Below are positions 5,330 to 62,852 of a stretch of DNA of 64,000 bases, piece by piece (the stretch's first letter is position 1; every line of letters begins with the position of its first letter). The notes beneath the pieces are model-generated. The model ran no database searches, was not told the origin of the DNA, and was given only the letters and a program-made list of their open reading frames with translations. Where the stretch lies: assembly GCA_964503465.1 (NCBI GenBank), contig CAZCYZ010000004.1:16235-80234 (forward strand), given 5' to 3'. Source of the DNA: an uncultured Gammaproteobacteria bacterium. GTDB taxonomy: Bacteria; Patescibacteriota; Microgenomatia; UBA12405. The translations under genes were made by a program, and so were the position numbers.

Positions 5330-5965
5330 TTATTTCTTTCTCTTTCTAAATTTCACCCAGACAACATATACCGTCAAAGAAATATAAGCAATTACCCAAC
5401 TTACGACAGTAAATGTCACCGCATTTCTTATTCTCAAAGAGATTAAATACCAGATAACTGTTGCCGGTATCATCCCCAATGTTGATACTACAAAATAGGG
5501 GATAAAGCCCAACTTGGTTAACCCGAAGGCATAAGAGATCACATCGTGAAACTCTTTTAGAAAAAGTCTAAAGACAAATAAAGTTTGTAAACCGTAGTTA
5601 CTTGCCAGTTCATCAATCTTTTCTAAACCGTCTTCACCTGCTAATTTTTTTACTACTCTTCGTCCCCAAATCTTAGCAATCCAAAAATTAGTTATAGATG
5701 CCAACACCGCCGCTGTAAATGCATAAACTACCGACATCTGGCCATAGACATAAAAACCGGCAAACAAAAATGGTGATCCGCTTAGCGGAGCGGCCACATT
5801 GGTAACCCACAAAAAGAAAATCAATAGCATCACCCCCAACGGTCCGGCGTCCTCAATAATTCTTCTAATAGTTTCTTCCGGCACTCTAGCACCAATGATA
5901 ATCATCACTAAAAACACCACCGCAATAAAAACCAGTGGCAAATAACTTTTCTTGATGGCCTTCAT
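5330..5965 (-). CDS. DedA/TVP38-TMEM64-like membrane protein
   Basis: About 210-aa polytopic protein containing the NVAAPLSGSPFLFAGFYVYG glycine/proline segment typical of the DedA family. Confidence 0.4.
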   Translation of the reverse strand: MKAIKKSYLPLVFIAVVFLVMIIIGARVPEETIRRIIEDAGPLGVMLLIFFLWVTNVAAPLSGSPFLFAGFYVYGQMSVVYAFTAAVLASITNFWIAKIWGRRVVKKLAGEDGLEKIDELASNYGLQTLFVFRLFLKEFHDVISYAFGLTKLGFIPYFVVSTLGMIPATVIWYLISLRIRNAVTFTVVSWVIAYISLTVYVVWVKFRKRKK

Positions 5966-6903
5966 AACATTAACTTCCTAATTTCTTCTTCGATATCCGC
6001 CAGTTTCCTTAATTTTTCACTTAATCCCAAGTTGTCTTTTTTCATCAACAAGGTCTGGGCTTCGCCCAACATATCCGCCTGACTGAATTTCAATTTACTT
6101 AGGTTTTCATTATATCTTTTGAAGAAGTTACCATAATCCAATGCTCTTTTAACTCCAAGCGGTAAGGCAAAACCGTTGAGAAAACCGATTTGATAATCTT
6201 TTAGCTCGTTTTTACTAACCAAATCAGCTAAGTGTTTGATCGCTTTACCGTTAATTAAAGCACCGTTGTCTTGTTCTTCCTTATTAGCTTTTTGGTAAAG
6301 CTCCCTAAACCAAACCATCGCTCGCTGGTAGATCTCTTCATCTGTTGGAGAACTGACTCTCGCTGGTTTTGCCCAGTAACGATAGTAACCTCTTTTGTAG
6401 CTGATATCATCTGCTTTCCAAGCTTTAGCTAGTTGATCTTTATTGATAAATACACGAGCAAACCCGGCTGGATCATTAACGTAAACTTTCTCACCCTCAA
6501 TTTTATAAGCCAAAACAAAGTGATCAACTCCAGGTGACTTTGGTCTATCCGGGTTGTAGTCCAAAAAACTCATGTCTAAAGGTCCAATCACCGCCGTTCC
6601 CTCTTTTACCATTTCTCCCAACTCTTCAAATGGAGCCTCACCCGATTCTTTGTTCTTTTCTTCAAATTGAAACCCAAGTATCTCCAGGGCCTTTGATATC
6701 CCCACGTCCGGCTCGCCAGCAACCCCACTAAAAAATGGCAACCCCGATCTTGAGGATACATGGCTACCCAAGCCGACACCGGTTAAGGGTTCAATTAGAT
6801 GTGGTGAAACGTCTTCTCCAATAGACCCCAACATCATCGCTGTTGAGTTGGCATAACAATACCAATAGCCATCAAAGAAGGGAATTTGGTTTGTACAAAA
6901 CAT
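5962..6903 (-). CDS. papain/C39-like peptidase-fold protein (BtrH_N/DUF4872-like)
   Basis: N-terminal YCYANSTAMMLG resembles the C39 dCGpAALAMIL Cys box, and the downstream VDHFVLAY resembles the His box. Confidence 0.35.
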   Translation of the reverse strand: MFCTNQIPFFDGYWYCYANSTAMMLGSIGEDVSPHLIEPLTGVGLGSHVSSRSGLPFFSGVAGEPDVGISKALEILGFQFEEKNKESGEAPFEELGEMVKEGTAVIGPLDMSFLDYNPDRPKSPGVDHFVLAYKIEGEKVYVNDPAGFARVFINKDQLAKAWKADDISYKRGYYRYWAKPARVSSPTDEEIYQRAMVWFRELYQKANKEEQDNGALINGKAIKHLADLVSKNELKDYQIGFLNGFALPLGVKRALDYGNFFKRYNENLSKLKFSQADMLGEAQTLLMKKDNLGLSEKLRKLADIEEEIRKLML

Positions 6904-6924: not shown

Positions 6925-7362
6925 ATGCCACCTATTTTTTCCAAAAAACTTTCCTGGTTTCTGTTAATTTCTCTTTTTACCTTTGATGCTGTTTTCTCTT
7001 ATTGGGCAGTTGTTTATCGGAACGCCCACGAAGCCAACCCGGCTATTAAAAATATTGTTGAGACCTACCCACTGCTTTATTTTGTTACAGTGCCCGGTCT
7101 TATCCTGATTATGTATCCAGTTTACAAAGGACTATCTCTACTTGCCGGTAAGTTATTCAAGACAGTTGATAAAGAAATAAGAGAAAAAGTTGTTTTAACC
7201 GCTCTAGTAATCTATTGGGTTCTTGGTAACTCATCTGTCAATTTCTCGTTTCTAGCTGGCCACAGACAACCAGCCTACGTTTGGTATTTGACTGCTATTC
7301 TGGCGATTGTCCCAGCTACAATTTATTCTCTTGTTTCCCTTAACCGTAATAATGAGCCATGA
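6925..7362 (+). CDS. membrane protein (4 TM), unknown function
   Basis: Hydrophobic 145-aa ORF; no motif recognised. Confidence 0.4.
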   Translation: MPPIFSKKLSWFLLISLFTFDAVFSYWAVVYRNAHEANPAIKNIVETYPLLYFVTVPGLILIMYPVYKGLSLLAGKLFKTVDKEIREKVVLTALVIYWVLGNSSVNFSFLAGHRQPAYVWYLTAILAIVPATIYSLVSLNRNNEP

Positions 7363-7713
7363 TGAAACACACCGTCTCCACTGGTGGGATAGTCACCAAA
7401 ACAGAAGCTGGTCAAGTAGAACTAGTTCAAACTACATCACTACTTTGAGACACTCCTTTTTTATACTGTCTCATTTGTCTCATTTAGGTACAAAGGGAGA
7501 GTAGAATGAGACAGGGTGTTATAGGGACAGAAAGGTTCCAGACCCACCTGCTCCGCCAAAGTTCGAATGTTCGCGATAGTTCCATGTGATATAGGTAATG
7601 CTATTCCCCTAACCAATAACTCGTTTGTTCCTGCTTAGCTTCAATTTCGTTCCAGACCCATGTCCTCGAGGGGGTGCGACTGATTGTCATACGCGATAGC
7701 AGTATAATTACCC
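7362..7713. promoter_or_regulatory. 352-bp noncoding spacer with TGTCTCATTT x2 / GAGACA inverted repeats and GTTCCAGACCCA x2, at a strand-composition switch point (origin-like)
   Basis: No ORF. Direct repeat tgtctcatttgtctcattt with an inverted partner aatgagaca; the 12-mer gttccagaccca recurs about 105 bp apart. On the + strand C>G to the left and G>>C to the right of this spacer. Confidence 0.35.
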
Positions 7714-8562
7714 ATGACTTGGTATGTATATGCCCTGATTCCCATGGTTTTGTATACGGTTTTCAATATATTGACCAGGGTAGTATTGAGGGACACTGAA
7801 GATACAAAAGCGTTTGCGGTGTTGTTTTATGGCTTAACGGCAATATTTAACTTAGGAATAGGAGTTTTTGAAACCATAGAAGTGGGATCAATTACTCCGT
7901 GGATTGTAATTTTAACCCTGATAGTCTTTGTAAACTGGGGGGTGTTTGGTTTCTTGGAAACAAATGCTAAAAAGTTTACTGAAATATCAACGTTTATGGT
8001 GTTGGTAAAAATTGGGACGGTATTATCGTTCGTATTATCGGTGATTTTTTTGAAAGAGACAATTACGGCAAGAAAGGTGGTGGCACTGGTGATTATGGTG
8101 GGAACAATGGTGGCGCTAATATTGAGAATTTATGGGTCAAGATTGAAGATAGATAGAGGTTTTGCATACTCGGCATTGTTGGGAGTAATACTAGGAATTG
8201 GTTGGACAATTGATAAGGTGGTGGCGGTGGCCTGGGGAGCAGTGCTGTACTCGGCAATTTCGAGTTTTAGCTCAAGTGCATTTGCCATGGCAGTGCCACC
8301 GATTAAGATTGGGTCGCTGAAGAGACAGCTTCGACTGGTAACTCCAATGTTTGTATTTTTGGCAGTGATTAACGCAGTGGCATACTATTTTTTTATGAAA
8401 GCGATGACAGTGGGTGAGGTATCGAAAGTAGTATTAGTGGTGACGTTAAATGAAATATTAACCATAGTTGGGGGAATATGGTTCTTGGGGGAAAAATCGT
8501 TTTGGCTGGAAAAAGTTGTGGCTGGGATAATAATAATCTCGGCATCGTTTCTGCTTTTATAG
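7714..8562 (+). CDS. EamA/DMT-superfamily transporter (10 TM)
   Basis: 282-aa protein with two 5-TM halves, one of four paralogs in the window. Confidence 0.6.
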   Translation: MTWYVYALIPMVLYTVFNILTRVVLRDTEDTKAFAVLFYGLTAIFNLGIGVFETIEVGSITPWIVILTLIVFVNWGVFGFLETNAKKFTEISTFMVLVKIGTVLSFVLSVIFLKETITARKVVALVIMVGTMVALILRIYGSRLKIDRGFAYSALLGVILGIGWTIDKVVAVAWGAVLYSAISSFSSSAFAMAVPPIKIGSLKRQLRLVTPMFVFLAVINAVAYYFFMKAMTVGEVSKVVLVVTLNEILTIVGGIWFLGEKSFWLEKVVAGIIIISASFLLL

Positions 8563-25866: not shown

Positions 25867-26691
25867 ATGAAATGGTTGATTAATCTATTTGAGGGAGGTA
25901 GGAACCTAGAGAGGTTAAACCAGTGGTTAGGGAAAATTGAGTGGCCAGAGAGTTGGGATTATAGGAGTTTTGAGATTAGAAAGAGGAATGGTGGCAAGAG
26001 ATTGATAGAGGCACCAAATGAAAAATTGAAAGCATTGCAGGTAAGAACTTATGAATTGCTTCTTAAATACCTTAAACCCCATCCGAGCTGTGTGGGATTT
26101 GTACCGAGGCTGTCAATCGTCGAGGCGGCTAAAATACATGTAGACAAAGAGGTAATAATTAACTTGGACTTGAAGGATTTTTTTCACTCGATAACAGAAA
26201 AAAGAGTGTACCGATATTTTCGGGGAATTGGCTGGGGAAGAACAGCGGCAAAAATGCTAACCAAGATCTGTTGTCACAGAGGACGGTTACCGATGGGGGC
26301 ACCGACCAGCCCGATGTTGAGCAATGTAATTAATTATCAAATGGATGAAAGAATTAATAAGTTGGCAGGAAAATTGGGAGGGCAATATACCAGATATGCG
26401 GATGATATAACTTTGTCGTTTGATGAGTTTGGAAGCAAGCAGAAAATAGTTTTAAAAGTATTACCAGGAATATTGAATGATTATGGTTTTGTGATTCAGA
26501 AGAAAAAGAAGGTAAGAATTCAGAGACGACACCAACGACAAACAGTGGTGGGATTGGTGGTTAATAAAAAAGTAAATTTGCCTAGATGGTGGAGAAAGAA
26601 ACTGCGAGCAATGAAACATCAAGGAAAAATTGATAAAAACAAGATGCGGGGGTATGAGGGATTGATGAAAATGGTGGAAATGAGAAGATAA
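25867..26691 (+). CDS. retron-type reverse transcriptase
   Basis: RNGGKRLIEAP, DLKDFFHSI, RLPMGAPTSPMLSN (QGxxxSP-type, not the DGR SQ variant), YTRYADDITLSF (YxDD) and the retron-specific RQTVVGLVVN (VTG region). Confidence 0.8.
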   Translation: MKWLINLFEGGRNLERLNQWLGKIEWPESWDYRSFEIRKRNGGKRLIEAPNEKLKALQVRTYELLLKYLKPHPSCVGFVPRLSIVEAAKIHVDKEVIINLDLKDFFHSITEKRVYRYFRGIGWGRTAAKMLTKICCHRGRLPMGAPTSPMLSNVINYQMDERINKLAGKLGGQYTRYADDITLSFDEFGSKQKIVLKVLPGILNDYGFVIQKKKKVRIQRRHQRQTVVGLVVNKKVNLPRWWRKKLRAMKHQGKIDKNKMRGYEGLMKMVEMRR

Positions 26692-50603: not shown

Positions 50604-51524
50604 TTAAAACAAAGAACCTTGGTTGGTGTCAACTTCTGGTTTGGTTATTAATTTTAAACCGTATTGCTTGTTAAGACGGGAAGAAAGCGATTTAAAGTGA
50701 TATTGGTCAAAAAGAGTAAGTAGACCTTGAACTTGAACATCAGACCAGAGGGAAGACTTTAGGGAAAACTTAAGAGGAATGTTATCGATGAGGGTGGCAA
50801 GTTTTTGGCTAAGATAGGCATTGTCACGATCGCGGGTCAATTTTTCAGCGATGGCAGGTTTGATATCGGCAAGATGAGAATAAATGTTGTCGAGATGGTG
50901 ATACTGGGTAAGAAGATCGGTGGCAACGACTGGACCGATACCGGTGACACCAGGATAATTGTCGGACATGTCCCCCATCAGAGCTTTAAGATCGATAACC
51001 TGGTCGGGGGTAACACCTAGTTTTTCTTTGACTTCGATGGAGCCAAAAGTTTTGGTTTCGGAAAGGCCACGAAGGGGCATAAAAAGTTTGACCCTATCCC
51101 CCACCAACTGCATTAGGTCTTTGTCGCCAGTAATGATGGTGACAGTTAAGTTTTTGTTTTTCTTGAGGCTACGGCGAACCACAGTGGCAATAAGATCATC
51201 GGCCTCGTAACCACCGATGGCAAAACTAGTAATGTTGGCAATTTCGAGGGTTTGAGGAAGGAGAGGAAGTTGGGAAATAAGATTATACTCCGGGGCTTTA
51301 CGTTTGGCGCGGTAACCGATAAATTCGGTTTGACGAAAGGTTGGACCGGGAGAATCAAGACAAACAATAAGGTATTTGGGTTGAAGTTGGTCGAGAGCTG
51401 AAAGGAGCATAGAATAGAAACCGTAAATAGCATTGACCGGTTGACCATTGGTGGTTAGGGGCGGAATAGAGTGATAGGCCCGGTGAAGAACGGCGTGGGC
51501 ATCGATGATAAGCAGATTATTCAT
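50604..51524 (-). CDS. 5'-3' exonuclease (FEN-like, Pol I N-terminal-domain family)
   Basis: MNNLLIIDAHAVLHRAYHSIPPLTTNGQPVNAIYGF matches the 5'-3' exonuclease N-terminus, and H3TH motifs follow. Confidence 0.85.
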   Translation of the reverse strand: MNNLLIIDAHAVLHRAYHSIPPLTTNGQPVNAIYGFYSMLLSALDQLQPKYLIVCLDSPGPTFRQTEFIGYRAKRKAPEYNLISQLPLLPQTLEIANITSFAIGGYEADDLIATVVRRSLKKNKNLTVTIITGDKDLMQLVGDRVKLFMPLRGLSETKTFGSIEVKEKLGVTPDQVIDLKALMGDMSDNYPGVTGIGPVVATDLLTQYHHLDNIYSHLADIKPAIAEKLTRDRDNAYLSQKLATLIDNIPLKFSLKSSLWSDVQVQGLLTLFDQYHFKSLSSRLNKQYGLKLITKPEVDTNQGSLF

Positions 51525-51602: not shown

Positions 51603-52520
51603 ATGGAACAGCATCCGATACCCCAACAGATAAGCTCGTATGAGTTCAAGCTGGTGGGAGAGATGACACTGAAGCAATTCTTGAAAGCGGCAGGAGGAAT
51701 AATACTGGCCTTATTAATTAACTCAACAAAATTAGTATTCTTTGTTAAGTGGCCGTTAATGTTGACTTTTGGAGCGGGTGGGTTGGCGCTGGCTTTTGTC
51801 CCATTTCAGGATAGGCCGCTGGAAACATGGGTAAAAGCTTTTATTAAATCAATATATTCACCAACGATATTTATCTATCATAAAGTGGCACCAAAGAACT
51901 GGTTGGATTTGGATCCGTCAAAAGTGATAGCTTTACCAAAGGAAGAAGAGGAAGAAGAAAAAACGTTACCAATAAAGGAAAAATCGAAGGTAAAGGAATT
52001 TATCGGATCACTACCATCGGTTAAAAGAGAAATACAAAAGGAAGAGATCAATGAACAGCCAACAGTGAACAGTAAGATAAAACCAGAAGAAATGGTCAAC
52101 AAAGACCAAATTGCGGTTGAAACAGTCAAGTCAACAGCAGGGATAGTGGTCGAAGATGAACAAAAAATAGAAAAGGCTGGTTTGGGGTTAAAAACACAAA
52201 AATTGGAGGCAACAGGTGAGGTGAAGTTTGGAAGTATTCCGATGCCCGATATACCGGAAATCCCAAACATCATTGTGGGGATGGTGATGAATACTCAGGG
52301 GAAAATCATTGAAGGAGCAATAATTGAAGTTCAAGATGAAAAAGGAAATCCAACCAGAGTGTTTAAAACAAATTCATTGGGTCAATTTAAAACATCGACA
52401 CCGCTAGCGAGTGGAAGATATTTGGTGGTAGTAGAAAAAGAGGGATTAAGTTTTGACCGAGTGAATATTGACCTTAAGGGAGAAATTGTTCAGCCAATTA
52501 AGGTGACAGCGACAGGATAG
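51603..52520 (+). CDS. PrgI/VirB3-like T4SS membrane protein with C-terminal transthyretin/CarboxypepD_reg-like domain
   Basis: IPQQISSYEFKLVGEMTLKQF followed by two TM helices matches the PrgI family. The C-terminus reads GKIIEGAIIEVQDEKGNPTRVFKTNSLGQFKT...GRYLVVVEKEG. Confidence 0.5.
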   Translation: MEQHPIPQQISSYEFKLVGEMTLKQFLKAAGGIILALLINSTKLVFFVKWPLMLTFGAGGLALAFVPFQDRPLETWVKAFIKSIYSPTIFIYHKVAPKNWLDLDPSKVIALPKEEEEEEKTLPIKEKSKVKEFIGSLPSVKREIQKEEINEQPTVNSKIKPEEMVNKDQIAVETVKSTAGIVVEDEQKIEKAGLGLKTQKLEATGEVKFGSIPMPDIPEIPNIIVGMVMNTQGKIIEGAIIEVQDEKGNPTRVFKTNSLGQFKTSTPLASGRYLVVVEKEGLSFDRVNIDLKGEIVQPIKVTATG

Positions 52521-52539
52521 AATGGGTTATTATTAATCT

Positions 52540-53229
52540 ATGGCGGTTGATCCACTGAAAGTAGCGATTAAGGGAACGACACAAGAACATCTTCCGATTG
52601 AGGATGTGGTGGAAGGGATAGTGATTCTAAAAGATGGATCGTGTGCAATGGTGGTGGCAATTTCGTCGGTAAACTTTGATTTACTGTCAGAGAGGGAACA
52701 ATCGGCTTTAATTTTTGCTTATGGAGGAATTCTTAACTCACTTAACTTCCCGGTTGAGATAGTAATCCGATCGGAGACCAAAGACGTAAGCTCTTACTTG
52801 AAAAGATTGTCTGAAGCCCAAGAAAAACAGACTAATCCCCTACTACGAGACAAAATTGCGTCTTATCGAAAATTTATTGAAGAGGTAGTTAAGAAAAACG
52901 ACGTCTTGGCAAAGAACTTTTACCTGGTAGTACCGTTTTCGATTCTTGAACTGGGAATCAAGAGTGCAACTAAAATGTTGCCAATAGGGAAAAGTGGTGG
53001 AGGGTTGCCGTATTCAAAAGAATATATTTTGGAAAAAGCGAGAGCTAGCCTTGAGCCTAAAAGAGATCATTTGATGAGATTGTTTGCCAGATTGGGACTG
53101 GAAGTGAAACCGTTAACAACAAAAGAGCTAATTGAGTTGTTCTACAAAATTTACAACGAAGAAACAGCAATGAACCAGAAGGTTCAATCACTTAATTATT
53201 CGGCACCAACGGTGACAACCAAGGCGTGA
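52540..53229 (+). CDS. VirB4/TrsE-family ATPase, N-terminal domain fragment (separated from the ATPase body by an in-frame TGA)
   Basis: LPIEDVVEGIVILKDGSCAMVVAISSVNFDLLSEREQSALIFAYGGILNSLNFPVEIVI matches Gram-positive VirB4 N-termini. The downstream ORF is in the same frame. Confidence 0.6.
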   Translation: MAVDPLKVAIKGTTQEHLPIEDVVEGIVILKDGSCAMVVAISSVNFDLLSEREQSALIFAYGGILNSLNFPVEIVIRSETKDVSSYLKRLSEAQEKQTNPLLRDKIASYRKFIEEVVKKNDVLAKNFYLVVPFSILELGIKSATKMLPIGKSGGGLPYSKEYILEKARASLEPKRDHLMRLFARLGLEVKPLTTKELIELFYKIYNEETAMNQKVQSLNYSAPTVTTKA

Positions 53230-53232
53230 TTT

Positions 53233-55845
53233 ATGAACATATTGAGTAAACTAATAAAGAAAAAAGAGGGAAAGGCGGAAGTGAAGCCCGTTGATAACCA
53301 GAGCAGTCAGACAAGCAAACCGTTTGTGGAGGGATTGGTGTCAACCAAAGATATTATTGCACCATCGGCTTTGGAGGTGGATTTTAATCATATTAGAGTA
53401 AACGAAAGATACTACCGAACTATCTTTGTGGCTGGATATCCAAGATTTGTGGGAATAAATTGGTTATCAAACTTAATCAATTTTGACGCCTCGTTGACAA
53501 CAGCGATGTACATTTACCCAACCGACGGCAAAGAAATATTGGATGATTTGCGAAGAAAGATTGCCGAAATGGAGGCAGAAATTAGTACTGATATGCAACG
53601 TGGAAGAGTAGTTAATCCGGCAACATCAGCCAAACTTGAAGACGCATTGAATTTACAGGCTGATTTGGTAAAAGGGGAAGAAAGATTTTTTCAGTTTGGA
53701 CTGTACGTAACCATTGGAACGGACTCAAAAGAGGAAGTAGAAAGGATAACAAAGAACTTGGAGGCGGGGTTGGGGGCGCTAATGATTATTAGCAAAAAAG
53801 CAACATTGCAGATGGAAGAGGGGTTTGTAACAACCCTACCGATATGCAGTGACAGGCTGCAAATAACTAGAAACATGGACACAACCTCGCTGGCAACCAC
53901 TTTTCCCTTTGTATCATCTGATTTATCGGATGATAAGGGAATAATGTATGGAATTAATGAGCATAACGGAAGTCTAGTGATCTTTGACCGATTTTCAATG
54001 CCAAATTACAATTCAGTGGTTTTTGCAACAGCCGGGGCAGGGAAATCGTATTTAATTAAACTTGAAGTATTGCGATCACTAATGCTAGGGACAGAGATAA
54101 TAGTAATTGATCCGGAAAATGAGTATAAGGATCTGTGTGAGGCGGTTGGGGGGCAATATATCGCGTTTGGTTATGGAGAGGCGTCAAAAATTAACCCGTT
54201 TGACTTGTCGCTGGTGGAAGAAGAGGGAGAAAACGCTTTAAACTCAAAAATTTTATCATTGCACAAGTTGTTTAAAATCATGCTGGGAGAAATGGATCCG
54301 ATTGAAGAATCGATACTCGATAAGGCGATAATGGATGCCTACAAGATGAAAGGGATAACTCCGGATCCGGAAAGTCAGAAAAAAGAGCCACCACTAATTG
54401 AGGATTTGTATAAGTCGTTGGTGGGGATGGAAGAGGAAAAGTCAAAAGGATTGGCGGCAAGACTGGAAAAATATATCAAGGGGTCGTTTGCGGGAATTTT
54501 TAACCAAAAAACAACAGTGAATTTGAACAACAAATTTGTGGTTTTTGGAATTAGAAACCTGGAGGATAGTTTGCGGCCGGTAGCAATGCATATAGTACTT
54601 GATCATATTTGGACAGTGGTTAAGAAAGATCTAAAAAGGAGAATTATGGTAGTGGATGAGGCTTGGTACTTGATGCAATATCCTGATTCAGCATCTTTCT
54701 TGAGGGGGATTGTGAAACGAGGGCGAAAATATTATTTGGGAGTGACGACAATTACTCAGGATGTGGATGATTTTCTGGAAACTCCGTTTGGAAAGGAAAT
54801 TGTAACGAATAGTGCGATTCAAATACTACTAAAGCAACACAGCGCAGCAATTGAACAGGTGGGAGAGGTGTTCTATTTGTCGGAAGGTGAGAAGCAATTA
54901 TTGCTGGCGGCCGACAAAGGAGAAGGAATATTCTTTGCTGGCCAGAACCATGTGGCTTTACGAGTGATTGCCTCGGAGGAAGAGCACAAACTGATAACTT
55001 CAAATCCAGAGGAGGTAATGAAGTGGAAAGCTCAAAAGTCGAGCCTGAAAACAGAAGAGTCAACTGTTAAGACTAAAGTGGAAATAAAACAGGCAGAACC
55101 AACAATAAATATTGTTGGTGATCAATCGACTAAACCGATAACAGGGACACAAGCACAGACAAACTTGCCGACAACGACATCAGTACCACCAACGACGGTG
55201 GTATCTCCACCAACGGGATTAATACCGACAACAAAACCGACACTGGAAGAACCGAAGGTGTTGTTTAAAGCGGAAGTAGTTGAAAACGAAACAGAAAAAG
55301 CATTGGGGGAAAAGATTAAACAAATGGAAGAAGAAGAGAAAAAAGAAATTGAGGCACATCAAAAAAAAGTCGAAGAGGAAAAAAAGAAGAAAGAGGAAGA
55401 AGAAAAGAAAAAATTATCAGGAACATTTAATGGATTTGGTGGTTCACCAATGGGAGGATTGCCGAAATACGGCGAGTTGTTTAAATCATCAAGTGCAGGA
55501 AAACTTCCACCGTTGCCACCATTACCACCGTTACCAAAGGTTCCAGCAAACCAGAACTCGCCACTGCCAAAATTTGAACCACCTAAAGCGATGGTGGCTG
55601 ACCCAATTTTAAGTAAACCGGCAATAGGTAAACCAATTTTTGTAAACCAGCCAGAACCAAAAATTCCTCAACCGCCACAATTTGCCAAAATCAAAAATCA
55701 AAATTCAAATACCCGCCTGTCGGACGGGCAGGTCAAAAATGAACAACAGGGAAGTCAAACCCAAAGTGATCAAAATAAAAAAAACTTAAGTTATGAGGAG
55801 CTGTTTGGTCCACCGGCTGGCGGAGGAGATAAGGGACAAAAATAG
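53233..55845 (+). CDS. VirB4/TrsE/CagE-family T4SS ATPase body with long Pro/Lys/Glu-rich C-terminal extension
   Basis: Walker A FATAGAGKSYLIK and the Walker B/VirB4 motif IMVVDEAWYLM. The C-terminal approximately 300 aa are low complexity (PPLPPLPPLP). Confidence 0.8.
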   Translation: MNILSKLIKKKEGKAEVKPVDNQSSQTSKPFVEGLVSTKDIIAPSALEVDFNHIRVNERYYRTIFVAGYPRFVGINWLSNLINFDASLTTAMYIYPTDGKEILDDLRRKIAEMEAEISTDMQRGRVVNPATSAKLEDALNLQADLVKGEERFFQFGLYVTIGTDSKEEVERITKNLEAGLGALMIISKKATLQMEEGFVTTLPICSDRLQITRNMDTTSLATTFPFVSSDLSDDKGIMYGINEHNGSLVIFDRFSMPNYNSVVFATAGAGKSYLIKLEVLRSLMLGTEIIVIDPENEYKDLCEAVGGQYIAFGYGEASKINPFDLSLVEEEGENALNSKILSLHKLFKIMLGEMDPIEESILDKAIMDAYKMKGITPDPESQKKEPPLIEDLYKSLVGMEEEKSKGLAARLEKYIKGSFAGIFNQKTTVNLNNKFVVFGIRNLEDSLRPVAMHIVLDHIWTVVKKDLKRRIMVVDEAWYLMQYPDSASFLRGIVKRGRKYYLGVTTITQDVDDFLETPFGKEIVTNSAIQILLKQHSAAIEQVGEVFYLSEGEKQLLLAADKGEGIFFAGQNHVALRVIASEEEHKLITSNPEEVMKWKAQKSSLKTEESTVKTKVEIKQAEPTINIVGDQSTKPITGTQAQTNLPTTTSVPPTTVVSPPTGLIPTTKPTLEEPKVLFKAEVVENETEKALGEKIKQMEEEEKKEIEAHQKKVEEEKKKKEEEEKKKLSGTFNGFGGSPMGGLPKYGELFKSSSAGKLPPLPPLPPLPKVPANQNSPLPKFEPPKAMVADPILSKPAIGKPIFVNQPEPKIPQPPQFAKIKNQNSNTRLSDGQVKNEQQGSQTQSDQNKKNLSYEELFGPPAGGGDKGQK

Positions 55846-55869
55846 AAACAGAATTGAGTATAATCAGAT

Positions 55870-58800
55870 GTGGTTGGCGTAAAAGAAAAAAAAAGGACAA
55901 ATTTGTTTGCCTTTGGTGATAATACTCCGGTAGCTTATGCAACAATTGGAGATCTAATTTCGGCACTCGAGGAATTAAGAGATATACGGGCTAGAGGAGA
56001 ATATGTGTATGATGCCCAATACGAAGATCTACGAAGAATGGTGGGGCGGGTGTTGGGAAGAGGCGATGTAAAACTTTTTGGGGAAATAAAAAAAGTTGAT
56101 GAATATATTTGGGACTTAAAAGCACTAGGAAATCCTGAAACACCAATTGCAGAAGAACCAGTGGTAGTGGAGACAGAGAAAGAGTTAGGGTCGAAAGCAG
56201 TAGACCCATATGTATTAAGACAATTACTGAGGGACTTGGATGAACACGAAGCAAAACTTGATTTGGAAGCGGAATCGGAAAGGTTGGGGAGAAGATATGG
56301 GGTACCAAAGCAAACAGTAAAGGATTTGATTGCTGAAAAACTGAAAATACAAGCTCGACTGAAAGAGGAATTGCTAAGAGAAAATCCAACAATGGAGCCA
56401 GAAATGGCAGAGATTGTAGCCGACGAACAGAGCGAAATGGAGATGGCGGTGAGGGCAGAGTTGGAAGAAGCAATGGTGGCGGGAGGACAAGTAGAGGAAG
56501 TAATAAGAGTCACAGAAGAGACGGTGGCAAAACTGGTGGAAGAGCCAGAGGCGGAATGGATACAGATAGAAAAGGAGGGTCTGAGGAAATTAAAATTAAC
56601 CGAAGCACAGCGGGAACAGATTAGGGAATTAATAGAAGAAGTAGCAATAGAAACCGTGGTGGCCCAGAAAACCGAAAAAACGGTTGAAGGGCTGTTAAAT
56701 AGAGTGGGGGAAGGAGAGTTATTACCAGGGGTGGTAATAAGTCCAACTTTGAAAGACGACTTGACGGAGATTGTGGAAACAGCAATAAACAATGACCCAA
56801 CAGCGGCGGAAATGGAGATGGTTCAGATGTTGGAAACGCAGGCTGGAAAAGTAATACCTGAGGCGGTGAAAGTGGAAGTAAGGGTGGCGGTAGCTGAAAT
56901 GAGACGATTTGGAGAGGAACACCCAAGAATAGCCGAAGAGCACGAGTTGATAGAGACAAGAAAAGAGGTGATAGCGGATTTTGTAGCGGTAAATGGAGAG
57001 TTGGACGAAGAACAAAGATCATTGGTGGAAGAATATGTGGATGGTTATGTCGGGTGGTGTAGAGCGATTGAGCCAATACGAATAAAAACAGAAGAGGTTG
57101 AGACAACAGATAAAGAAACGGAAGAATCAGAGGGGGGAGGGAGATTAACGAAGACGCAAATAGAACAAGGAATACCAAGAGTGGAAACACTAATGCGAGT
57201 AATAAGGACACCCCAAAATATTTATCAAAAATTGATAAATATCAGAACAAGATTGGAACGGGCCGGGGTGAAAGTTCCGGCGGTTTTTAACAAAAATATC
57301 CGATTCGAAACGTTTGAACGAATAAACAAGATGGTAATGGAAAACCCGGCGGTGGAGAAATTACTTTACTTTGCTCAAAAAAGAGAGGCCTTGGGGCTAG
57401 CAATACGGACTGGAGTAAGAGTGGCAGCGGTTAATACGCTATTAAAAATAGGGGCACCGGCGATGGCAGGAAAGGTGTTGGGCTGGGTTGGGGTTGAAAC
57501 TATTGGAAAATGGACCGTGGAGGGGTTTGTCAAGTTGTCATTGCGAGCAATAAGAAGATATGGAGTGGAGCAAGGGGTTGGTTTGATGATAAAAGCAGTG
57601 GCAACAAGGACAGCGGCAAAAATGGCGGCAGGGACGGTGGGAAAGGTGGCATTGGAAGCAGTAATAGTGGCCTTGGGAGGAGCAACGGGGCCTCCGGGAT
57701 GGGTAATAACACTAATACTAATAGGATTGGATATTGCCTGGCAGGCGGTGAAATTTGTTTTCAAAAGAGTAAAAGCATTTTTTGATAAAATTTCGGAAGG
57801 ATTGGGTCTTGACACTCCATGGCTTGACAGTTTGCTGAGAGACAATTTTGGAAAATTTGGAGGATCAATAGTAAAGAATGTGGGAACAATGGCAGCGATG
57901 GCAGTTGGCCTACTGGTGGCAATTCCAACAGCGTTAATGGCAATACCATCGACAATAATAGGATTAATAGTAGTACTAGTAATAGTGGTGCCATTGGTGG
58001 CTACCCAATTGTTGACAGCGCCGCAAGTAGCGATGCTGGTGCCACCACCAATGGGTGGAGGGTGTGTAAGAGTAATTGATGGCGCGGCAGAAAACGGAGA
58101 AGCAAACTGCCCAAGGGGGCTACCAGAACAGACGGCAGAGGGGGTAGACAGAGAAAACTATTTTAGATTGGCAGATCAGTGGAAGAGTGGTAAAAATCAT
58201 GCCAGAGAGTGCTTCGATGCAGTGGTGTGCAAGTCGAAAGCAGCAGGAATTCTGCCGGCTTGGTCGTTATGGGCCTGGTTGCATGAATCGGATGCAAGTA
58301 ATTATTCGCACGGGGAAGTAGAAGATTTTGGAATACACACTGGAGGGGTACCAAACAATGATTTCAATGCTCAACTAGAAAAGTTTTTGGAAATGGATCA
58401 TGGAGCATCGTGTGGTGGGGATTATTGGCTGGGGTTTGCGTCGATGTATTTGAATGGGACATGTGACCCAGACCAACCACATGTAACAAGTGGTCAAACA
58501 GGAAGACAATATTATGAGGAACTACAACAAACATGGGCCTGGGTAACAAACGGAGCACCACTACCAAACTCGATTCATGTATCACCAAGTGGAGGAAGTT
58601 GTGAGGGTGACACAAACCTAGCCAGAGGTGGAGTGCGAATAACGGATGAAAATGGACAAGAATGGTTGTGTGCTGATGAAGAAACGGCAGGAGGAATGAG
58701 TAATAGTATCGTAGCACCACCATGGGTACCAATGGGAGAGATCCCCGAAGGGTGTCCAAATAGGCTGCCGGCCAATAGCGGATACTTTACCCAAGGACCA

Positions 58801-59214
58801 TTTGCGCCTAACTGTAGTCATGAACACATGAGTTCGGCGGCGATCGATATTGGAATTGGAGGCGGATCGGAAATCGTAGCCACACATCCAGGAATAGTTA
58901 AGTTTGGTGAGAGTTATGATGCGATTTATGGTTATTATGTTGACGTGTTGGGTAAATGTGAGGGGAAAGAGTTCTTTACTAGATATGCTCACATGCCAAG
59001 TTTTCCGAATATTCAAAATGGAGCGCAAGTAAATGCAGGAGATTACATTGGGCAGGTTGACACTACGGGCTCATCAACAGGGAACCATATTCACTATCAC
59101 ATTAACGGGCTGGACAAATCTTATTTTGGACAATATTTGGGGTTGGATGAGGCGACAACGGCACAATTGTGGGGATGTTGTGGAGTGGAATGGAATGGAA
59201 AAGCCTGTCCCTGA
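55870..59214 (+). CDS. giant T4SS-associated protein: acidic coiled-coil N-region, polytopic TM block, C-terminal M23 (LytM-like) peptidoglycan peptidase
   Basis: C-terminus FTRYAHMPS...GDYIGQVDTTGSSTGNHIHYHI matches the M23 YAHL...G.TG.STGPHLHFE block. An upstream WLHESDASNYSHG may be lysozyme/SLT-like. About 6 TM between aa 480 and 720. Confidence 0.65.
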   Translation: MVGVKEKKRTNLFAFGDNTPVAYATIGDLISALEELRDIRARGEYVYDAQYEDLRRMVGRVLGRGDVKLFGEIKKVDEYIWDLKALGNPETPIAEEPVVVETEKELGSKAVDPYVLRQLLRDLDEHEAKLDLEAESERLGRRYGVPKQTVKDLIAEKLKIQARLKEELLRENPTMEPEMAEIVADEQSEMEMAVRAELEEAMVAGGQVEEVIRVTEETVAKLVEEPEAEWIQIEKEGLRKLKLTEAQREQIRELIEEVAIETVVAQKTEKTVEGLLNRVGEGELLPGVVISPTLKDDLTEIVETAINNDPTAAEMEMVQMLETQAGKVIPEAVKVEVRVAVAEMRRFGEEHPRIAEEHELIETRKEVIADFVAVNGELDEEQRSLVEEYVDGYVGWCRAIEPIRIKTEEVETTDKETEESEGGGRLTKTQIEQGIPRVETLMRVIRTPQNIYQKLINIRTRLERAGVKVPAVFNKNIRFETFERINKMVMENPAVEKLLYFAQKREALGLAIRTGVRVAAVNTLLKIGAPAMAGKVLGWVGVETIGKWTVEGFVKLSLRAIRRYGVEQGVGLMIKAVATRTAAKMAAGTVGKVALEAVIVALGGATGPPGWVITLILIGLDIAWQAVKFVFKRVKAFFDKISEGLGLDTPWLDSLLRDNFGKFGGSIVKNVGTMAAMAVGLLVAIPTALMAIPSTIIGLIVVLVIVVPLVATQLLTAPQVAMLVPPPMGGGCVRVIDGAAENGEANCPRGLPEQTAEGVDRENYFRLADQWKSGKNHARECFDAVVCKSKAAGILPAWSLWAWLHESDASNYSHGEVEDFGIHTGGVPNNDFNAQLEKFLEMDHGASCGGDYWLGFASMYLNGTCDPDQPHVTSGQTGRQYYEELQQTWAWVTNGAPLPNSIHVSPSGGSCEGDTNLARGGVRITDENGQEWLCADEETAGGMSNSIVAPPWVPMGEIPEGCPNRLPANSGYFTQGPFAPNCSHEHMSSAAIDIGIGGGSEIVATHPGIVKFGESYDAIYGYYVDVLGKCEGKEFFTRYAHMPSFPNIQNGAQVNAGDYIGQVDTTGSSTGNHIHYHINGLDKSYFGQYLGLDEATTAQLWGCCGVEWNGKACP

Positions 59215-59232
59215 TAGCGTAAACTAGAGAAG

Positions 59233-60186
59233 ATGAGGAACAAAAAAGTGGTGGTCATAACAATGCTAGCGGTAGTGGTGGTGTTGGCGATAATTAGTTT
59301 GATGGCGAGGAAGAAAAACGGAGGACAAAAAGAAACACCAGTGGCGATGCCAACAGTAATCAGAAAAAGATTACCAACAAAGTTTGACTTTTCACAACCA
59401 AAAAGTATTGGCTGGAACTTTAAAGAACCAAACAGAGTGGAAAAAATAGACAAGTTGGCGATAGAGAAAGCTGCAATTAACCTTCAAATAATAAAAAAAA
59501 TGTTGGCAATAGTGGGCTTAAATGAGGGTCAGAAAACTTTGGAAAAAAATGGATTAATAAACTTTGGTGACGGAAAAAATAAAAGCGCTTATTTTGACGT
59601 ATATAACAATAAGTTTAGCTATAGCGAGATAATTAGTAGTCGTGATCAGATAAAAGACAAGGGCGAACCGATGGCGGGTGATTGGGAAAACAAAATTAGA
59701 AAGACAATGGGATTGGAAGGGGTAGAAATCAGGGTGGTGTCAAGAGAATATAAGAAGATTGTTAACCCAAGGTGGGTAACAACAACCGAGAGCGAAGCGG
59801 AGGCAACGGAAATCAGGGCTAATTACTATTGGGGTGATTATCCCCTACTGGGTTTTGCGGGCGAACCGATGACAGTATTAGTGTCAAAGACTGGAAGAAT
59901 ATTGAAGATGGAGGTAGAGATACTTGGTAAAGTGACGATGAATGAAGAGACAGAATTGATAACAGGTGAAGATCTAAAAAAAATTGGGGCAAGTGGAGCG
60001 TGGCTGTGGAAGGTTGATGGAGATACGGAAAACGAAGACGTGGGGGCGGTGACAATAACTGGGGTGAGTTTGGGGTATATTTACAACCCAGAGGGAGTGG
60101 TGGGAGCATATTGGATAGGAGAAGGAAATGGAATATTGGGATCAAAACCAGTAAAAGTTAAAGTGATCGTACCAGCAGAAAAATGA
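59233..60186 (+). CDS. bitopic membrane protein (N-terminal TM plus extracytoplasmic domain), possible VirB8-like
   Basis: MRNKKVVVITMLAVVVVLAIISL anchor; operonic with the T4SS genes. Confidence 0.3.
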   Translation: MRNKKVVVITMLAVVVVLAIISLMARKKNGGQKETPVAMPTVIRKRLPTKFDFSQPKSIGWNFKEPNRVEKIDKLAIEKAAINLQIIKKMLAIVGLNEGQKTLEKNGLINFGDGKNKSAYFDVYNNKFSYSEIISSRDQIKDKGEPMAGDWENKIRKTMGLEGVEIRVVSREYKKIVNPRWVTTTESEAEATEIRANYYWGDYPLLGFAGEPMTVLVSKTGRILKMEVEILGKVTMNEETELITGEDLKKIGASGAWLWKVDGDTENEDVGAVTITGVSLGYIYNPEGVVGAYWIGEGNGILGSKPVKVKVIVPAEK

Positions 60187-60530
60187 AAAAATATGGATTG
60201 GTAATATGGCTGATGATGGTAGTAGTAACAATGGCGGTGGTTAAGTGGCGTTATGGGTCGTCGAGAGGTGAAGAGGTGGTTCAAATAACACCAACACCGA
60301 CACCAATAATGGAGCCAACGACATCAATTAAAGAAGAGGATTACCCATTGTGGAAACTGCTCCCCTACTCGGGAGTGGGTTTTACGGTCGACAGATATAT
60401 AGAGCCATTGACATTGGTGGTGCTAATTAAAGGATTGGATAAACAAATTGTGACTGAAGAGATTGGAAAATGGATGGAGGAAAACGGGGTGAATCCAGAA
60501 ACACATAAGATAGTAATTAGTAATCAGTGA
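60183..60530 (+). CDS. small bitopic membrane protein
   Basis: N-terminal TM; overlaps the upstream stop. Confidence 0.35.
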   Translation: MKKYGLVIWLMMVVVTMAVVKWRYGSSRGEEVVQITPTPTPIMEPTTSIKEEDYPLWKLLPYSGVGFTVDRYIEPLTLVVLIKGLDKQIVTEEIGKWMEENGVNPETHKIVISNQ

Positions 60531-60554
60531 TCAATTAACAGTTAAAATAAAATA

Positions 60555-60839
60555 ATGAAAAAAATAATGCTAGCAGCAATAATAATTAGTGGTTTAATGT
60601 TTGGTGGGTGTGGAACAACGACCGAGAACAGTCAACAGAGGATAGAACAAAATGTAGTAACAAAAGAAGGAGTGGTACAGACAAAAATTGGGGACGAATA
60701 CGTACTAAAGACGGATTCGGAATTAGTTAATATGACGAGTAACAAAGTAAACCTTGACGACTATATGAAGAAACAGGTAAAGGTAACAGGGATGTTTTCT
60801 GGATCGACGCTGTATGTGGACAGGGTAGAAGAAAACTAG
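60555..60839 (+). CDS. small lipoprotein
   Basis: MKKIMLAAIIISGLMFGGCG lipobox. Confidence 0.45.
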   Translation: MKKIMLAAIIISGLMFGGCGTTTENSQQRIEQNVVTKEGVVQTKIGDEYVLKTDSELVNMTSNKVNLDDYMKKQVKVTGMFSGSTLYVDRVEEN

Positions 60840-61435
60840 AGAGGAACTTCTGTTGGAGCAGAAGAGGGATTGAGTATCCGCTGAAGTTCTGCGAGGAGAA
60901 TATCAGCTTTTTCGCCGGAGAGAGGCAGTCCGTTATTTTGCCCGAGAGCAGTGATATTCATAGCCTGAGTTGACGAATCAAGAAGATCAATCCTAAAAGC
61001 ACTCTTTGAAAGCGAGGTGTCGACACCTTCAAGTTTAATAGTTGTGACACCAGGACTGGAGGTTGGATTTCTACCAATAACTACACTTAACTCCGAGGTG
61101 GTGGGGCAATAATGTTGCTGGACCGCAAGAGTGTTAGGATGGTCCTGGTTGCCTGGAAAGATTGATAGAATGGAAAGTCCGGGAGCGGATGAATCTGGTA
61201 AAAATACAGGCTGAAGAATCAGTAGACCTTTTTGGTCAGCGAGTGGAACCGAGATGGCGGTGGTTTTGAGGGGGAGCAACTTAGGCTGATGATCGATACC
61301 AGATATCCATGAGCCCGCCTCTTCTTCATAAGAGAATATCCCGGTAATGGCTCTGGTAATACCTATCCAGGCTGAAACATCAATGCCCGCAACTGTATCA
61401 CCCGAGATGAAGCGCTGTTCGGAATATGTCAACAT
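60836..61435 (-). CDS. hypothetical protein downstream of dnaN
   Basis: Start trimmed to MLTYSEQRF so that it does not overlap dnaN. No family assigned and no RecF Walker A. Confidence 0.35.
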   Translation of the reverse strand: MLTYSEQRFISGDTVAGIDVSAWIGITRAITGIFSYEEEAGSWISGIDHQPKLLPLKTTAISVPLADQKGLLILQPVFLPDSSAPGLSILSIFPGNQDHPNTLAVQQHYCPTTSELSVVIGRNPTSSPGVTTIKLEGVDTSLSKSAFRIDLLDSSTQAMNITALGQNNGLPLSGEKADILLAELQRILNPSSAPTEVPL

Positions 61436-61442
61436 AGAATTA

Positions 61443-62570
61443 TTAATCTTGTAACCTAACAGGCATGATGATGTGGGTGAAAGAGGGGTCGGAGGTGTCG
61501 TGAAAAAAACCTGGAGTGAGGGCTTGATTGAGCTCGATGACAACATCCTTGCCTTGATTGATGGCTAAGAAGTCGGTAATAAATTTGTAATTAAAAGCAA
61601 TTTCGAGTGGTTCACCTTCAAGTTTTGATTCAAGAGTAACTTGGTTTTGGCCAACCTGAGGAGCATTAGCAGATAACTCAAGAGAAGATTTTTTGATTTT
61701 AAAGCGAACAACATTGGCCGACTGACGAGCAAAAACAGATGCAATTTTAATTGATTGAGAAAATTCTTCACGGTCAAGGGTAATTTTGGTAGTGTAACTG
61801 TCGGGGATAATACGTTGATAATCGGGAAACTCACCTTCGATAAGACGAGAAACTAATTCAACGTCATTAAGAACAAAAACAATTTGATGTTCATCGGTGG
61901 TAGGTCCGAGAGTAATTTTTTGGGTGCCTTTGCTTAACTTGGTGACTTCAGAGAGACTGCGGGCTGGAATAAGATACGAAACACCATTGGTGGCTCCATC
62001 TTTTAATTTGAGAGGGTTGGTGAGGTGGATGGTTTTGAGAGAAAGACGAAAACCATCAGTGGCAACTAAAGTAAGACTGTCGGCCGTAAAATGACAAAGG
62101 ACAGCAGTGAGAACTGGACGAGAGTCGTCAGTGGCGGCAGCAAAAACGACTTGGGATATAGCCCTGTCAATAAGAGAAAGATCAAGATCAAAACTAGTTT
62201 TGGGGTTGATAGAAGGAATGAGAGGAAAATCAGCAGGAGGAGTAGTAGTAAAAGAGGATTGTGATTTGGAAGACGAAAGATGGAGGAGATGATGATCGTC
62301 TAGTTCAAGGTCGACACGACCGGTAGGAAGATAGGAAACATACTCGGCAATTTCGTGAGAAGGAAGAGTGAATTGGCCTTCGGAGTCTATTTTGGCACCA
62401 ATCCAGTAATTAATACCAAGTTCAAGGTTGGTGGCAGATAGTTTGAGACGGCCAGAATCAGTAGAGAGAAGAATGTTGCCCAAGATTGGAAGTTGGGGTC
62501 GAGAAGCAGTAAAACGAGAAACATTTTGAAGAGCAAGATTGAAATTTTCTTGAAGAAGGGAAAGTTTCAT
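61443..62570 (-). CDS. dnaN: DNA polymerase III beta sliding clamp
   Basis: 375 aa; MKLSLLQENFNLALQNVSRF N-terminus with a three-domain beta-clamp architecture. Confidence 0.9.
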   Translation of the reverse strand: MKLSLLQENFNLALQNVSRFTASRPQLPILGNILLSTDSGRLKLSATNLELGINYWIGAKIDSEGQFTLPSHEIAEYVSYLPTGRVDLELDDHHLLHLSSSKSQSSFTTTPPADFPLIPSINPKTSFDLDLSLIDRAISQVVFAAATDDSRPVLTAVLCHFTADSLTLVATDGFRLSLKTIHLTNPLKLKDGATNGVSYLIPARSLSEVTKLSKGTQKITLGPTTDEHQIVFVLNDVELVSRLIEGEFPDYQRIIPDSYTTKITLDREEFSQSIKIASVFARQSANVVRFKIKKSSLELSANAPQVGQNQVTLESKLEGEPLEIAFNYKFITDFLAINQGKDVVIELNQALTPGFFHDTSDPSFTHIIMPVRLQD

Positions 62571-62852
62571 GCTGGTTAATTCTAATTAATAAGTAATATA
62601 AAGAACAGTAGTGGTATTAGTAGGTGGAGTGGATATGTGAGAGAGTGGAGGCATTAGGTCTTAAGTTTTGGATGAATTAATGAAAACGAATGTTGATAAT
62701 GAACAAAAGGCGGTAAGTTTGTTTTGGAGAAGTAGGTATTGGCTTATAAGTAGTGATGGGTTTTGGGAAAACTTCGGGGGAAAAGATGGAGGGCAATGGT
62801 GGAAAAATCGGTGGATAAGTAAGTTTATTGGTGGAAAAGTGGAGAGAATCAT
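62571..62852. promoter_or_regulatory. dnaA-dnaN intergenic region with DnaA-box-like sites and an AT-rich tract
   Basis: GGTGGATAAG (about 62809-62818; TTATCCACC on the dnaA strand, 8/9 to TTATCCACA) and AGTGGATAT; AT-rich ctaattaataagtaatataaag. Confidence 0.4.

Follow-up and report, generated by a model that had tools for sequence, protein, structure and literature searches.

We analyzed a stretch of 64,000 nt (hereafter the window) of contig CAZCYZ010000004.1 (positions 16,235 to 80,234; assembly GCA_964503465.1), which is titled as an uncultured Gammaproteobacteria bacterium and placed by GTDB among the Microgenomatia. Seven genes on its plus strand (A to G, 51603-60839) are, with high probability, the Shapirobacteria (Microgenomatia) form of the chromosomal, vertically inherited type IV secretion system (T4SS)-like module that belongs to the Patescibacteria VirB4 clade. 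They represent an ordinary case of an already published system and not a new type. Beyond the published description there is only the polymorphism of the hydrolase heads carried by protein D, together with the partner genes that are linked to particular heads.

The position of the module is well conserved. A scan of one genome per GTDB species delivered 80 loci from at least 436 matching stretches, and a single gene order recurs across these roughly 80 species-level Shapirobacteria loci. A trxB-like gene (+), a GT4 glycosyltransferase gene (-) and a 5'-3' exonuclease gene (-) are followed by the module with PrgI, TrsD, VirB4, a large membrane protein and one to three small anchored proteins, and then by dnaN (-) and dnaA (-). 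Upstream of PrgI, the exonuclease gene is present in 52 of 60 loci. Of the 44 loci whose flank extends for 7 kb or more, 41 have dnaN downstream, and its median distance from the end of VirB4 is 3.65 kb. Wherever the downstream flank is long enough, VirB4 is almost always followed by a gene of the D family, in nearly all cases directly. In addition, the identity of TrsD and PrgI to their counterparts in the window tracks that of dnaN and dnaA (Pearson 0.77-0.85). The occupation of the same site in about 80 species and the co-divergence with dnaN and dnaA argue for a fixed, vertically inherited locus and against an integrated conjugative element (ICE).

The order of the VirB4, TrsD, PrgI and hydrolase genes has a colinear counterpart in pGO1/pIP501-type conjugative MPF-FATA systems (PMC12102498) and would fit an ICE that inserted beside dnaN, whether complete or since decayed. 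Such an element would not account for one locus shared by so many species and co-diverging with housekeeping genes. Reading all translated open reading frames (ORFs) of the window revealed no relaxase, no integrase and no FtsK/VirD4-like type IV coupling protein (T4CP), neither within the 51 kb upstream of the module nor downstream to the window end, where only dnaN and dnaA are found. Apart from the module, the window ORFs are housekeeping and envelope genes. A survey of ORFs of at least 150 codons with a Walker A motif gave, besides VirB4, only an ABC transporter, DnaA and one chance match, and a second T4SS ATPase is absent from the 64 kb. The GC content of the module (0.40-0.46) resembles that of the remaining window, with which it also shares a strong strand skew, and all module genes are intact. 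The ICE reading is thereby largely refuted and we regard it as scarcely credible. The original prediction had anticipated this outcome: it described a host-like composition and the lack of a relaxase, VirD4 and integrase in the window, and it took the locus for a domesticated system that flanking mobility genes would have turned into an ordinary ICE. The view of a domesticated system is already the thesis of a published study (PMC12102498).

The assignment to the Patescibacteria clade is based on the CD1110 score and on the identity of the nearest homologues, of which the named ones stem almost exclusively from Shapirobacteria or other Patescibacteria. Many loci of the Shapirobacteria type (L013, L016-L018, L027, L079, L084 and others) are found on contigs titled 'uncultured Gammaproteobacteria', 'Candidatus Methanoperedens', 'Bathyarchaeia archaeon' or 'Clostridia bacterium'; these titles are probably placeholder names or the result of mis-binned contigs.

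In the window, the left boundary is set by the 5'-3' exonuclease gene (50604..51524, -; PF02739 and PF01367 in homologues), which is divergent from A. The right boundary is set by dnaN (61443-62570, -) and dnaA (62853 to the window end at 64000, -), both convergent with the module and recognized from their translation and the Pfam matches of homologues. The seven ORFs in between were confirmed at their predicted coordinates and are separated by spacers of 19, 3, 24, 18 and 24 nt and one 4-nt overlap. Such short distances make a single operon from A to G likely, judged from the gene arrangement. Promoter and terminator scans gave results at or below chance, and Rfam and tRNA scans over the window remained empty. 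The module had been described as directly abutting dnaN-dnaA, which is a little loose for the window: a gap of 603 nt separates dnaN from G, compared to 3 nt in the closest relative (L086), which lacks the insertion. This gap is occupied by a minus-strand ORF (60836-61546, -; called as 60836-61435, 199 aa, in L087) with no family match and no homologue at the DNA or protein level in more than 80 related loci. It appears to be lineage-specific.

Components of the module

Protein A (305 aa; 51603..52520, +) is a PrgI/VirB3-like membrane protein with a two-helix hydrophobic hairpin at residues ~30-67 and a Glu/Lys-rich linker. It matches PrgI (PF12666) over residues 5-88 (nt 51615-51866) with 29.7 bits and, at its C-terminus, the CarboxypepD_reg beta-sandwich (PF13620) over residues 224-283 (nt 52272-52451) with 32.5 bits, scores that only just exceed the respective cutoffs of 27 and 32.3. 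Both families were recorded for L085 and L087 too, and a homologue of A (41-61% identity) adjoins TrsD in 75 of 81 loci. The length of about 300 amino acids of this PrgI/VirB3-like protein is kept across Shapirobacteria. Given the two-helix hairpin, the CarboxypepD_reg domain would face the cytoplasm, which is unusual for that fold.

VirB4 is split over two genes. Protein B (229 aa; 52540..53229, +), which the original gene list did not name, matches the NCBIfam TrsD/TraD model at 3.4e-10. It aligns to positions 2-114 of the CD1110-type VirB4 and to positions 104-233 of the Mbov_0397 family, and its relatives carry the TraC-like family PF26593. Protein C (870 aa; 53233..55845, +) matches NCBIfam conju_CD1110 over positions 184-733 with 380 bits (cutoff 325) as well as PF19044 at 1.1e-30. 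Its P-loop domain (residues 256-564, nt 53998-54924) has an intact Walker A (ATAGAGKS) and Walker B (VVDEAW) motif, and a long, low-complexity tail rich in Pro, Lys and Glu starts at residue ~600 (nt 55030-55842). On the CD1110-type model, B and C jointly account for a full VirB4, with B equivalent to its N-terminal domain encoded as a gene of its own. Homologues of C number in the thousands, with 61-85% identity over the best local alignment, and the named ones are mostly from Candidatus Shapirobacteria. Complete VirB4 homologues span 617 to 1073 amino acids, chiefly through variation of the C-terminal tail.

In the window, B and C share a reading frame and are parted only by TGA-TTT-ATG (53227-53235). 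Recoding or read-through of this TGA, joining both proteins, was considered and rejected. TGA is an ordinary stop that ends 17 of the 60 window genes, and in relatives B and C are in different frames with either an ATGA overlap or a 34-nt gap, so the common frame is a coincidence. By this comparison the TrsD/VirB4 split is ancestral.

Protein D (1114 aa; 55870..59214, +) combines a conserved membrane scaffold with exchangeable peptidoglycan-hydrolase heads, as judged from its domain composition across the loci. It starts with an acidic coiled-coil (residues 1-480, nt 55870-57309) that is presumably cytoplasmic. The membrane core (residues ~520-730, nt 57427-58059), with three to four hydrophobic segments at residues 585-707, is conserved across 49 aligned D-position proteins and ends in an 'SSLVPP' motif among homologues ('MLVPP' in the window), whereas the N-terminal arm and the C-terminal region are variable in this alignment. 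A conserved Cys-rich domain common to 17 D proteins follows (residues ~745-945, nt 58102-58704), with an invariant 'W.W.HE(S/T)..SNY' motif; in every case it separates the membrane core from a head of the M23 or C39-like type. Neither Pfam nor a PDB-profile search yields a match, and it could represent a so far undescribed domain for wall binding or a glycosidase. The head itself is a Peptidase_M23 domain (PF01551, 53.3 bits; residues 990-1079, nt 58837-59106) that aligns to solved M23 peptidases. An SLT-like domain had been suspected in the Cys-rich part from the motif 'AGI(N/L)P..(A/S)LW.W(L/V)HES', and it found no Pfam or PDB profile support. With M23 as the sole confirmed enzyme domain, the earlier description of D as a VirB1 analog is appropriate in the functional sense of a wall hydrolase and not in the sense of a VirB1 homologue.

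Among the 49 D proteins, Pfam assigns an M23 head to 14, NlpC/P60 to 8, Peptidase_C39_2 to 7, CHAP to 5, VanY to 3 and Amidase_2 to one. When the D core of the window alone was used as a single-sequence HMMER query against 1.84 billion representatives, 31 proteins were found, all of the same architecture, and the 30 that were scanned with Pfam display the same mixture of heads. Proteins of the D family measure 640-1240 amino acids across the related loci, and none of 79 family members contains a VirB6/TrbL Pfam domain.

Three smaller proteins follow D, none with a family match above cutoff in Pfam or NCBIfam. Protein E (317 aa; 59233..60186, +) is bitopic with a transmembrane segment at residues 6-24. 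The bitopic protein F (115 aa; 60183..60530, +) has its transmembrane segment at residues 4-22, which is conserved in the F family together with an N-terminal KKYQLI-type motif. This near-universal family counts 47 members over the loci, located after D in nearly all of them, and F appears to be a core small component. Protein G (94 aa; 60555..60839, +) is a putative accessory lipoprotein with a signal peptide and a lipobox-like Cys (FGGC in the window; LGGC, LSGC or LSSC in 13 homologues) and occurs in 13 loci. The predicted series of contiguous same-strand genes for a PrgI-like protein, VirB4, a 1114-aa protein, bitopic proteins and a lipoprotein is hence present, with family matches for A to D.

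D, E, F and G could also be regarded as a wall remodelling or division unit that lies beside VirB4 and is unrelated to secretion. M23, NlpC/P60, CHAP and VanY enzymes are common in growth and division, and the locus adjoins replication genes. We consider this very improbable, because the D-family gene accompanies VirB4 with such constancy across the loci and with operon-like spacing in the window, and because membrane-anchored multi-domain hydrolases at such a position are typical of monoderm T4SSs (PMC12102498).

The heads of D and the small downstream genes are not combined at random. After clustering of the last 170 amino acids of each D protein and of the ectodomains of the small downstream proteins, the E family was found in 14 of 14 loci with an M23-headed D and in none of the 42 others. 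A bitopic family of 129-145 amino acids, S3, occurs in exactly the loci with a C39-like head (8/8). The NlpC/P60, CHAP and VanY head types come without a dedicated partner gene. Head types are interleaved on a neighbour-joining tree of TrsD and the VirB4 ATPase region, where, by parsimony, M23/E switches state about 10 times (8-12 over 100 bootstrap trees) and C39-like/S3 about five times. With so many repeated switches, the linkage between head and partner is not one inherited accident. A mirror-tree test of head, E and core distances gave correlations of 0.68, 0.58 and 0.65, and with values so similar lateral cassette exchange and vertical descent with repeated replacement are not separable. 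E appears to be an accessory tied to the M23 head and not a core component.

Indications on the role of E come from structure prediction. A word-indexed search delivered only five homologues for E and three for D, and the alignments for AlphaFold2 (AF2) are shallow due to this low yield; the E model was built from a five-sequence alignment. E has no match in PDB sequences or in Pfam, and none of the Pfam families PepSY, YycH and YycI was found in 12 E-family members at E-values up to 1. When the E model is compared with the PDB by Foldseek, the top ten matches comprise eight YycI chains (2o3o), YycH (9a5d) and the C-terminal domain of YpeB (5boi), with E-values of about 1e-4 to 8e-4 and TM-scores of 0.3-0.4. 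The model shows a repeated pattern of one helix plus four strands that fits tandem PepSY-like units, and it suggests, with low confidence, that the E ectodomain likely consists of tandem PepSY/YycI-like domains. The VirB8-like fold that had been proposed for the ORF at 59233 was not recovered, as no VirB8, TraM, TcpC or PrgL chain is among the 50 listed Foldseek matches of this low-confidence model, and the gene is an M23-linked accessory. PepSY/BLIP-type folds are thought to work through the binding of partner domains, and YpeB controls the cortex hydrolase SleB (PMC4282423). With low to moderate confidence, the model thus points to E as a partner of the M23 head, probably a restraint.

This pairing invites another reading, in which D would act together with its partner as an effector-immunity-like, polymorphic cassette directed against the host wall. 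The head would cut host peptidoglycan at the contact site, matched to the wall chemotype of the host, and E or S3 would protect the producer. Such a cassette would fit the combination of a conserved N-terminal/membrane part with C-terminal hydrolase heads of at least six alternative types, the exact match of heads and partners, the number of independent switches on the tree and the known occurrence of PepSY/BLIP-type folds in inhibitory partners. On the other hand, D is membrane-anchored with no evident release site, three head types lack a dedicated partner, and head, E and core distances all correlate, so that vertical descent with replacements explains much of the pattern. Moreover, the conjugative T4SSs of monoderms are likewise equipped with a variety of hydrolases that serve their own wall (PMC12102498). 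We consider the cassette doubtful. Equally tentative is the idea that the D head and the next gene are a co-varying, repeatedly exchanged pair, with a wall-cutter tuned to host peptidoglycan and E-type proteins as its cognate inhibitors. If this were true, the head type would be a genomic marker of host range in uncultivated Microgenomatia.

Proposed function

Gene content, homology, the conserved position, the co-divergence with housekeeping genes, the head polymorphism and the link between heads and partners are observed directly. From them we infer how a T4SS-like machine could be assembled and oriented, what E might do in it, and what it might transport in which direction. The split VirB4, consisting of the TrsD-like B and the ATPase C, would be the motor, which the two-helix PrgI/VirB3-like A would dock at the membrane. 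The core of D would span the membrane. The coiled-coil arm of D would reach into the cytoplasm, and the M23 head, preceded by the Cys-rich domain, would be placed outside to open the peptidoglycan locally. E would serve as the head-specific partner, probably restraining or positioning the M23 head in the way that PepSY-type proteins act on other hydrolases. F would be a universal small extracytoplasmic component, possibly a structural subunit, and G an accessory lipoprotein. The machine would move macromolecules between the Shapirobacteria cell and its host in a contact-dependent way. As relaxase and coupling protein genes are not nearby, it does not appear to be a conjugation apparatus, and a contact-dependent exchange of macromolecules with a host cell is, on the gene inventory, the most likely role.

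Several observations weigh against this interpretation. There is no VirB6-like polytopic ORF with at least five transmembrane segments between VirB4 and dnaN in the window, and multi-transmembrane ORFs occur at this place only in one or two related loci (L079, L082). A VirB8-like fold was not found in the module or the window, with the caveat that the E model is of low confidence, and the 64 kb hold no VirB2 pilin array or tandem small ORFs with two transmembrane segments. Without VirB6-like, VirB8-like or VirB2 proteins a complete channel cannot be assembled on paper. The structural models are weak as well: the E model has a mean pLDDT of 58.8 with only residues ~80-130 above 80, and the AF2 model of D (residues 480-960) with a pLDDT of 33.5 was discarded as unusable. 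In the M23 domain, the first zinc-ligand His deviates from the canonical HxxxD spacing, with a conserved His nine residues before the Asp, and the catalytic competence of the head is therefore an assumption.

The importance of these systems is better documented in Saccharibacteria, where epibiotic growth requires the T4SS (Wang et al. 2023, PMC10633639; 2025 review, PMC12857230) and recognizable coupling and relaxase proteins are likewise missing (PMC10633639; PMC12857230). The original prediction had also mentioned that such systems are implicated in episymbiotic lifestyles in the candidate phyla radiation (CPR).

The direction of transport leads to a further alternative. The module may be a Ced-like import machine, through which a cell unable to make nucleotides would take up nucleic acids or other macromolecules of its host. 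In addition to the lack of a relaxase or T4CP nearby, this idea can draw on a family-level match of VirB4 to the archaeal DNA-import ATPase CedB (2.3e-16), which is weak compared to the 380 bits for the CD1110-type VirB4, and the module lacks a CedA-like polytopic protein. For the cultivated Patescibacteria/Minisyncoccota parasite OT8, which lives on host RNA, a 2026 preprint describes tubular structures at the host interface, possibly T4SS pili, and lists VirB4 as presumably associated with macromolecule transfer (10.64898/2026.06.21.733656). Against import, the essentiality of the Southlakia T4SS is not due to ComEC uptake (PMC12857230), and the direction of transport cannot be read from a sequence. 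Overall, an import machine seems an unlikely, though conceivable, alternative to the contact-dependent exchange that we favour.

The Patescibacteria T4SS is apparently near-universal and essential in the one species tested. In Shapirobacteria its core set is small (PrgI, TrsD, VirB4, D and F), and two head types bring their own partner genes. Exchangeable heads with their own partners provide concrete pairs for testing, e.g., the M23 head and E. Together with the small core, they may explain why profile searches found VirB1, VirB6 and VirB8 to be scarce or unassociated in Microgenomatia.

Strand skew and other features of the window

The most unusual feature of the window is its strand skew, which is unrelated to the T4SS finding. 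Between 7700 and 64000 the plus strand has 15843 G versus 7972 C (skew 0.33), with a value of 0.36 in unannotated DNA. At third codon positions the skew is +0.54 in plus-strand genes and -0.51 on the coding strand of minus-strand genes; these opposite signs indicate that the skew is independent of the direction of transcription. Amino-acid usage also differs with gene strand in the window. In the closest relative (L086, 1-12534) the skew amounts to 0.2-0.47 across the locus and to 0.29-0.47 from dnaN on, running straight through dnaN, the dnaA region, rnpA and yidC, and in a more distant relative (L001) it is weak.

The minimum of the cumulative GC skew and its only sign change are located near 7.5 kb (~7300-7750), about 55 kb from dnaN and dnaA, and there is no switch at dnaA. 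DnaA-box-like 9-mers are present at 62691, 62810 and 62873, in or near the dnaN-dnaA spacer, with a window-wide count not above chance, and none is found near the switch at 7.5 kb. The origin implied by the skew and the position of dnaA thus disagree, which bears on the published gene-dosage idea of a location 'near the origin' for this lineage.

Two other genes deserve mention. A 313-aa protein (5962-6903, -) with weak matches to BtrH_N and Peptidase_C39_2 belongs to a papain-like family shared with one D head type; it is far from the module and adjoins the skew switch. A stand-alone retron-type reverse transcriptase of 274 amino acids with a YADD motif is encoded at 25867-26691 (+) and matches PADLOC retron models up to 3.4e-77 and Pfam RVT_1 at 1e-20. 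It shows no fused effector domain, no defence-family match in its neighbours and no non-coding RNA by Rfam.

Relation to known systems

The conjugative systems of pGO1, pSK41 and pIP501 are plasmid-borne and include a relaxase, a T4CP, a VirB6-like TraL, VirB8-like TraH/TraM and a hydrolase with SLT and CHAP domains. Based on the gene orders known for pGO1 and pIP501, their TrsC-TrsD-TrsE-TrsF-TrsG series is colinear with the module, comprising a VirB3-like protein, TrsD, VirB4 and a membrane-anchored hydrolase. This is the only subclass of MPF-FATA with a separate TrsD (PMC12102498). A further difference is that B of the window scores far below the curated TrsD cutoff (40 vs. 200 bits).

pCF10 (PrgI, PrgJ and PrgK) also combines a PrgI-family protein and a VirB4 with a large hydrolase that is anchored in the membrane and has an M23/LytM domain. 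PrgK is a multi-domain hydrolase with a LytM/SLT/CHAP architecture. D differs by a coiled-coil arm of about 480 amino acids, a multi-helix membrane core, a head that is exchanged between species and the lack of a confirmable SLT domain. As for E, the YpeB-SleB and YycH/YycI systems may be comparable: E is bitopic, its gene is linked to a hydrolase head, and the best fold matches of its model are YycI, YycH and YpeB, yet it has no sequence similarity to the PepSY, YycH or YycI families and the likeness concerns a low-confidence fold. With the Ced DNA-import system of Sulfolobales the module shares a VirB4/HerA-type ATPase without a relaxase and the weak family-level match to CedB, whereas CedA-type proteins are absent and the VirB4 of the window is bacterial and MPF-FATA-like.

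The closest resemblance is to the T4SSs of Patescibacteria themselves. Quinonero-Coronel et al. (2025) assigned 2,425 of 2,474 VirB4 proteins of Patescibacteria to a single clade within the monoderm MPF-FATA class, with TrsD as the most abundant associated component and a PrgI-type VirB3 as a common one (PMC12102498). The study also reports that Patescibacteria have hardly any relaxases and that their T4CP genes are distant from virB4; for Microgenomatia it notes few VirB6 proteins, essentially no VirB8 and a poor association of VirB1 homologues with virB4 (PMC12102498). Like these systems and that of Southlakia epibionticum (SEML1_0006-0019, PMC10633639), the module has a VirB4 of the CPR clade with TrsD- and PrgI-like neighbours, no relaxase or T4CP nearby, a chromosomal location and hydrolase genes downstream of virB4. 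Compared to Southlakia, it lacks a VirB2-like pilin array as well as a VirB6 homologue in or near the module. Neither the D family, with its core and swappable heads, nor the head-specific partner genes are described in PMC12102498. The surroundings correspond to those reported there, since the commonest virB4 neighbours in Microgenomatia and Paceibacteria are dnaN, dnaA, rnpA and rpmH (PMC12102498), and the module of the window, as in these Microgenomatia T4SSs, adjoins dnaN and dnaA.

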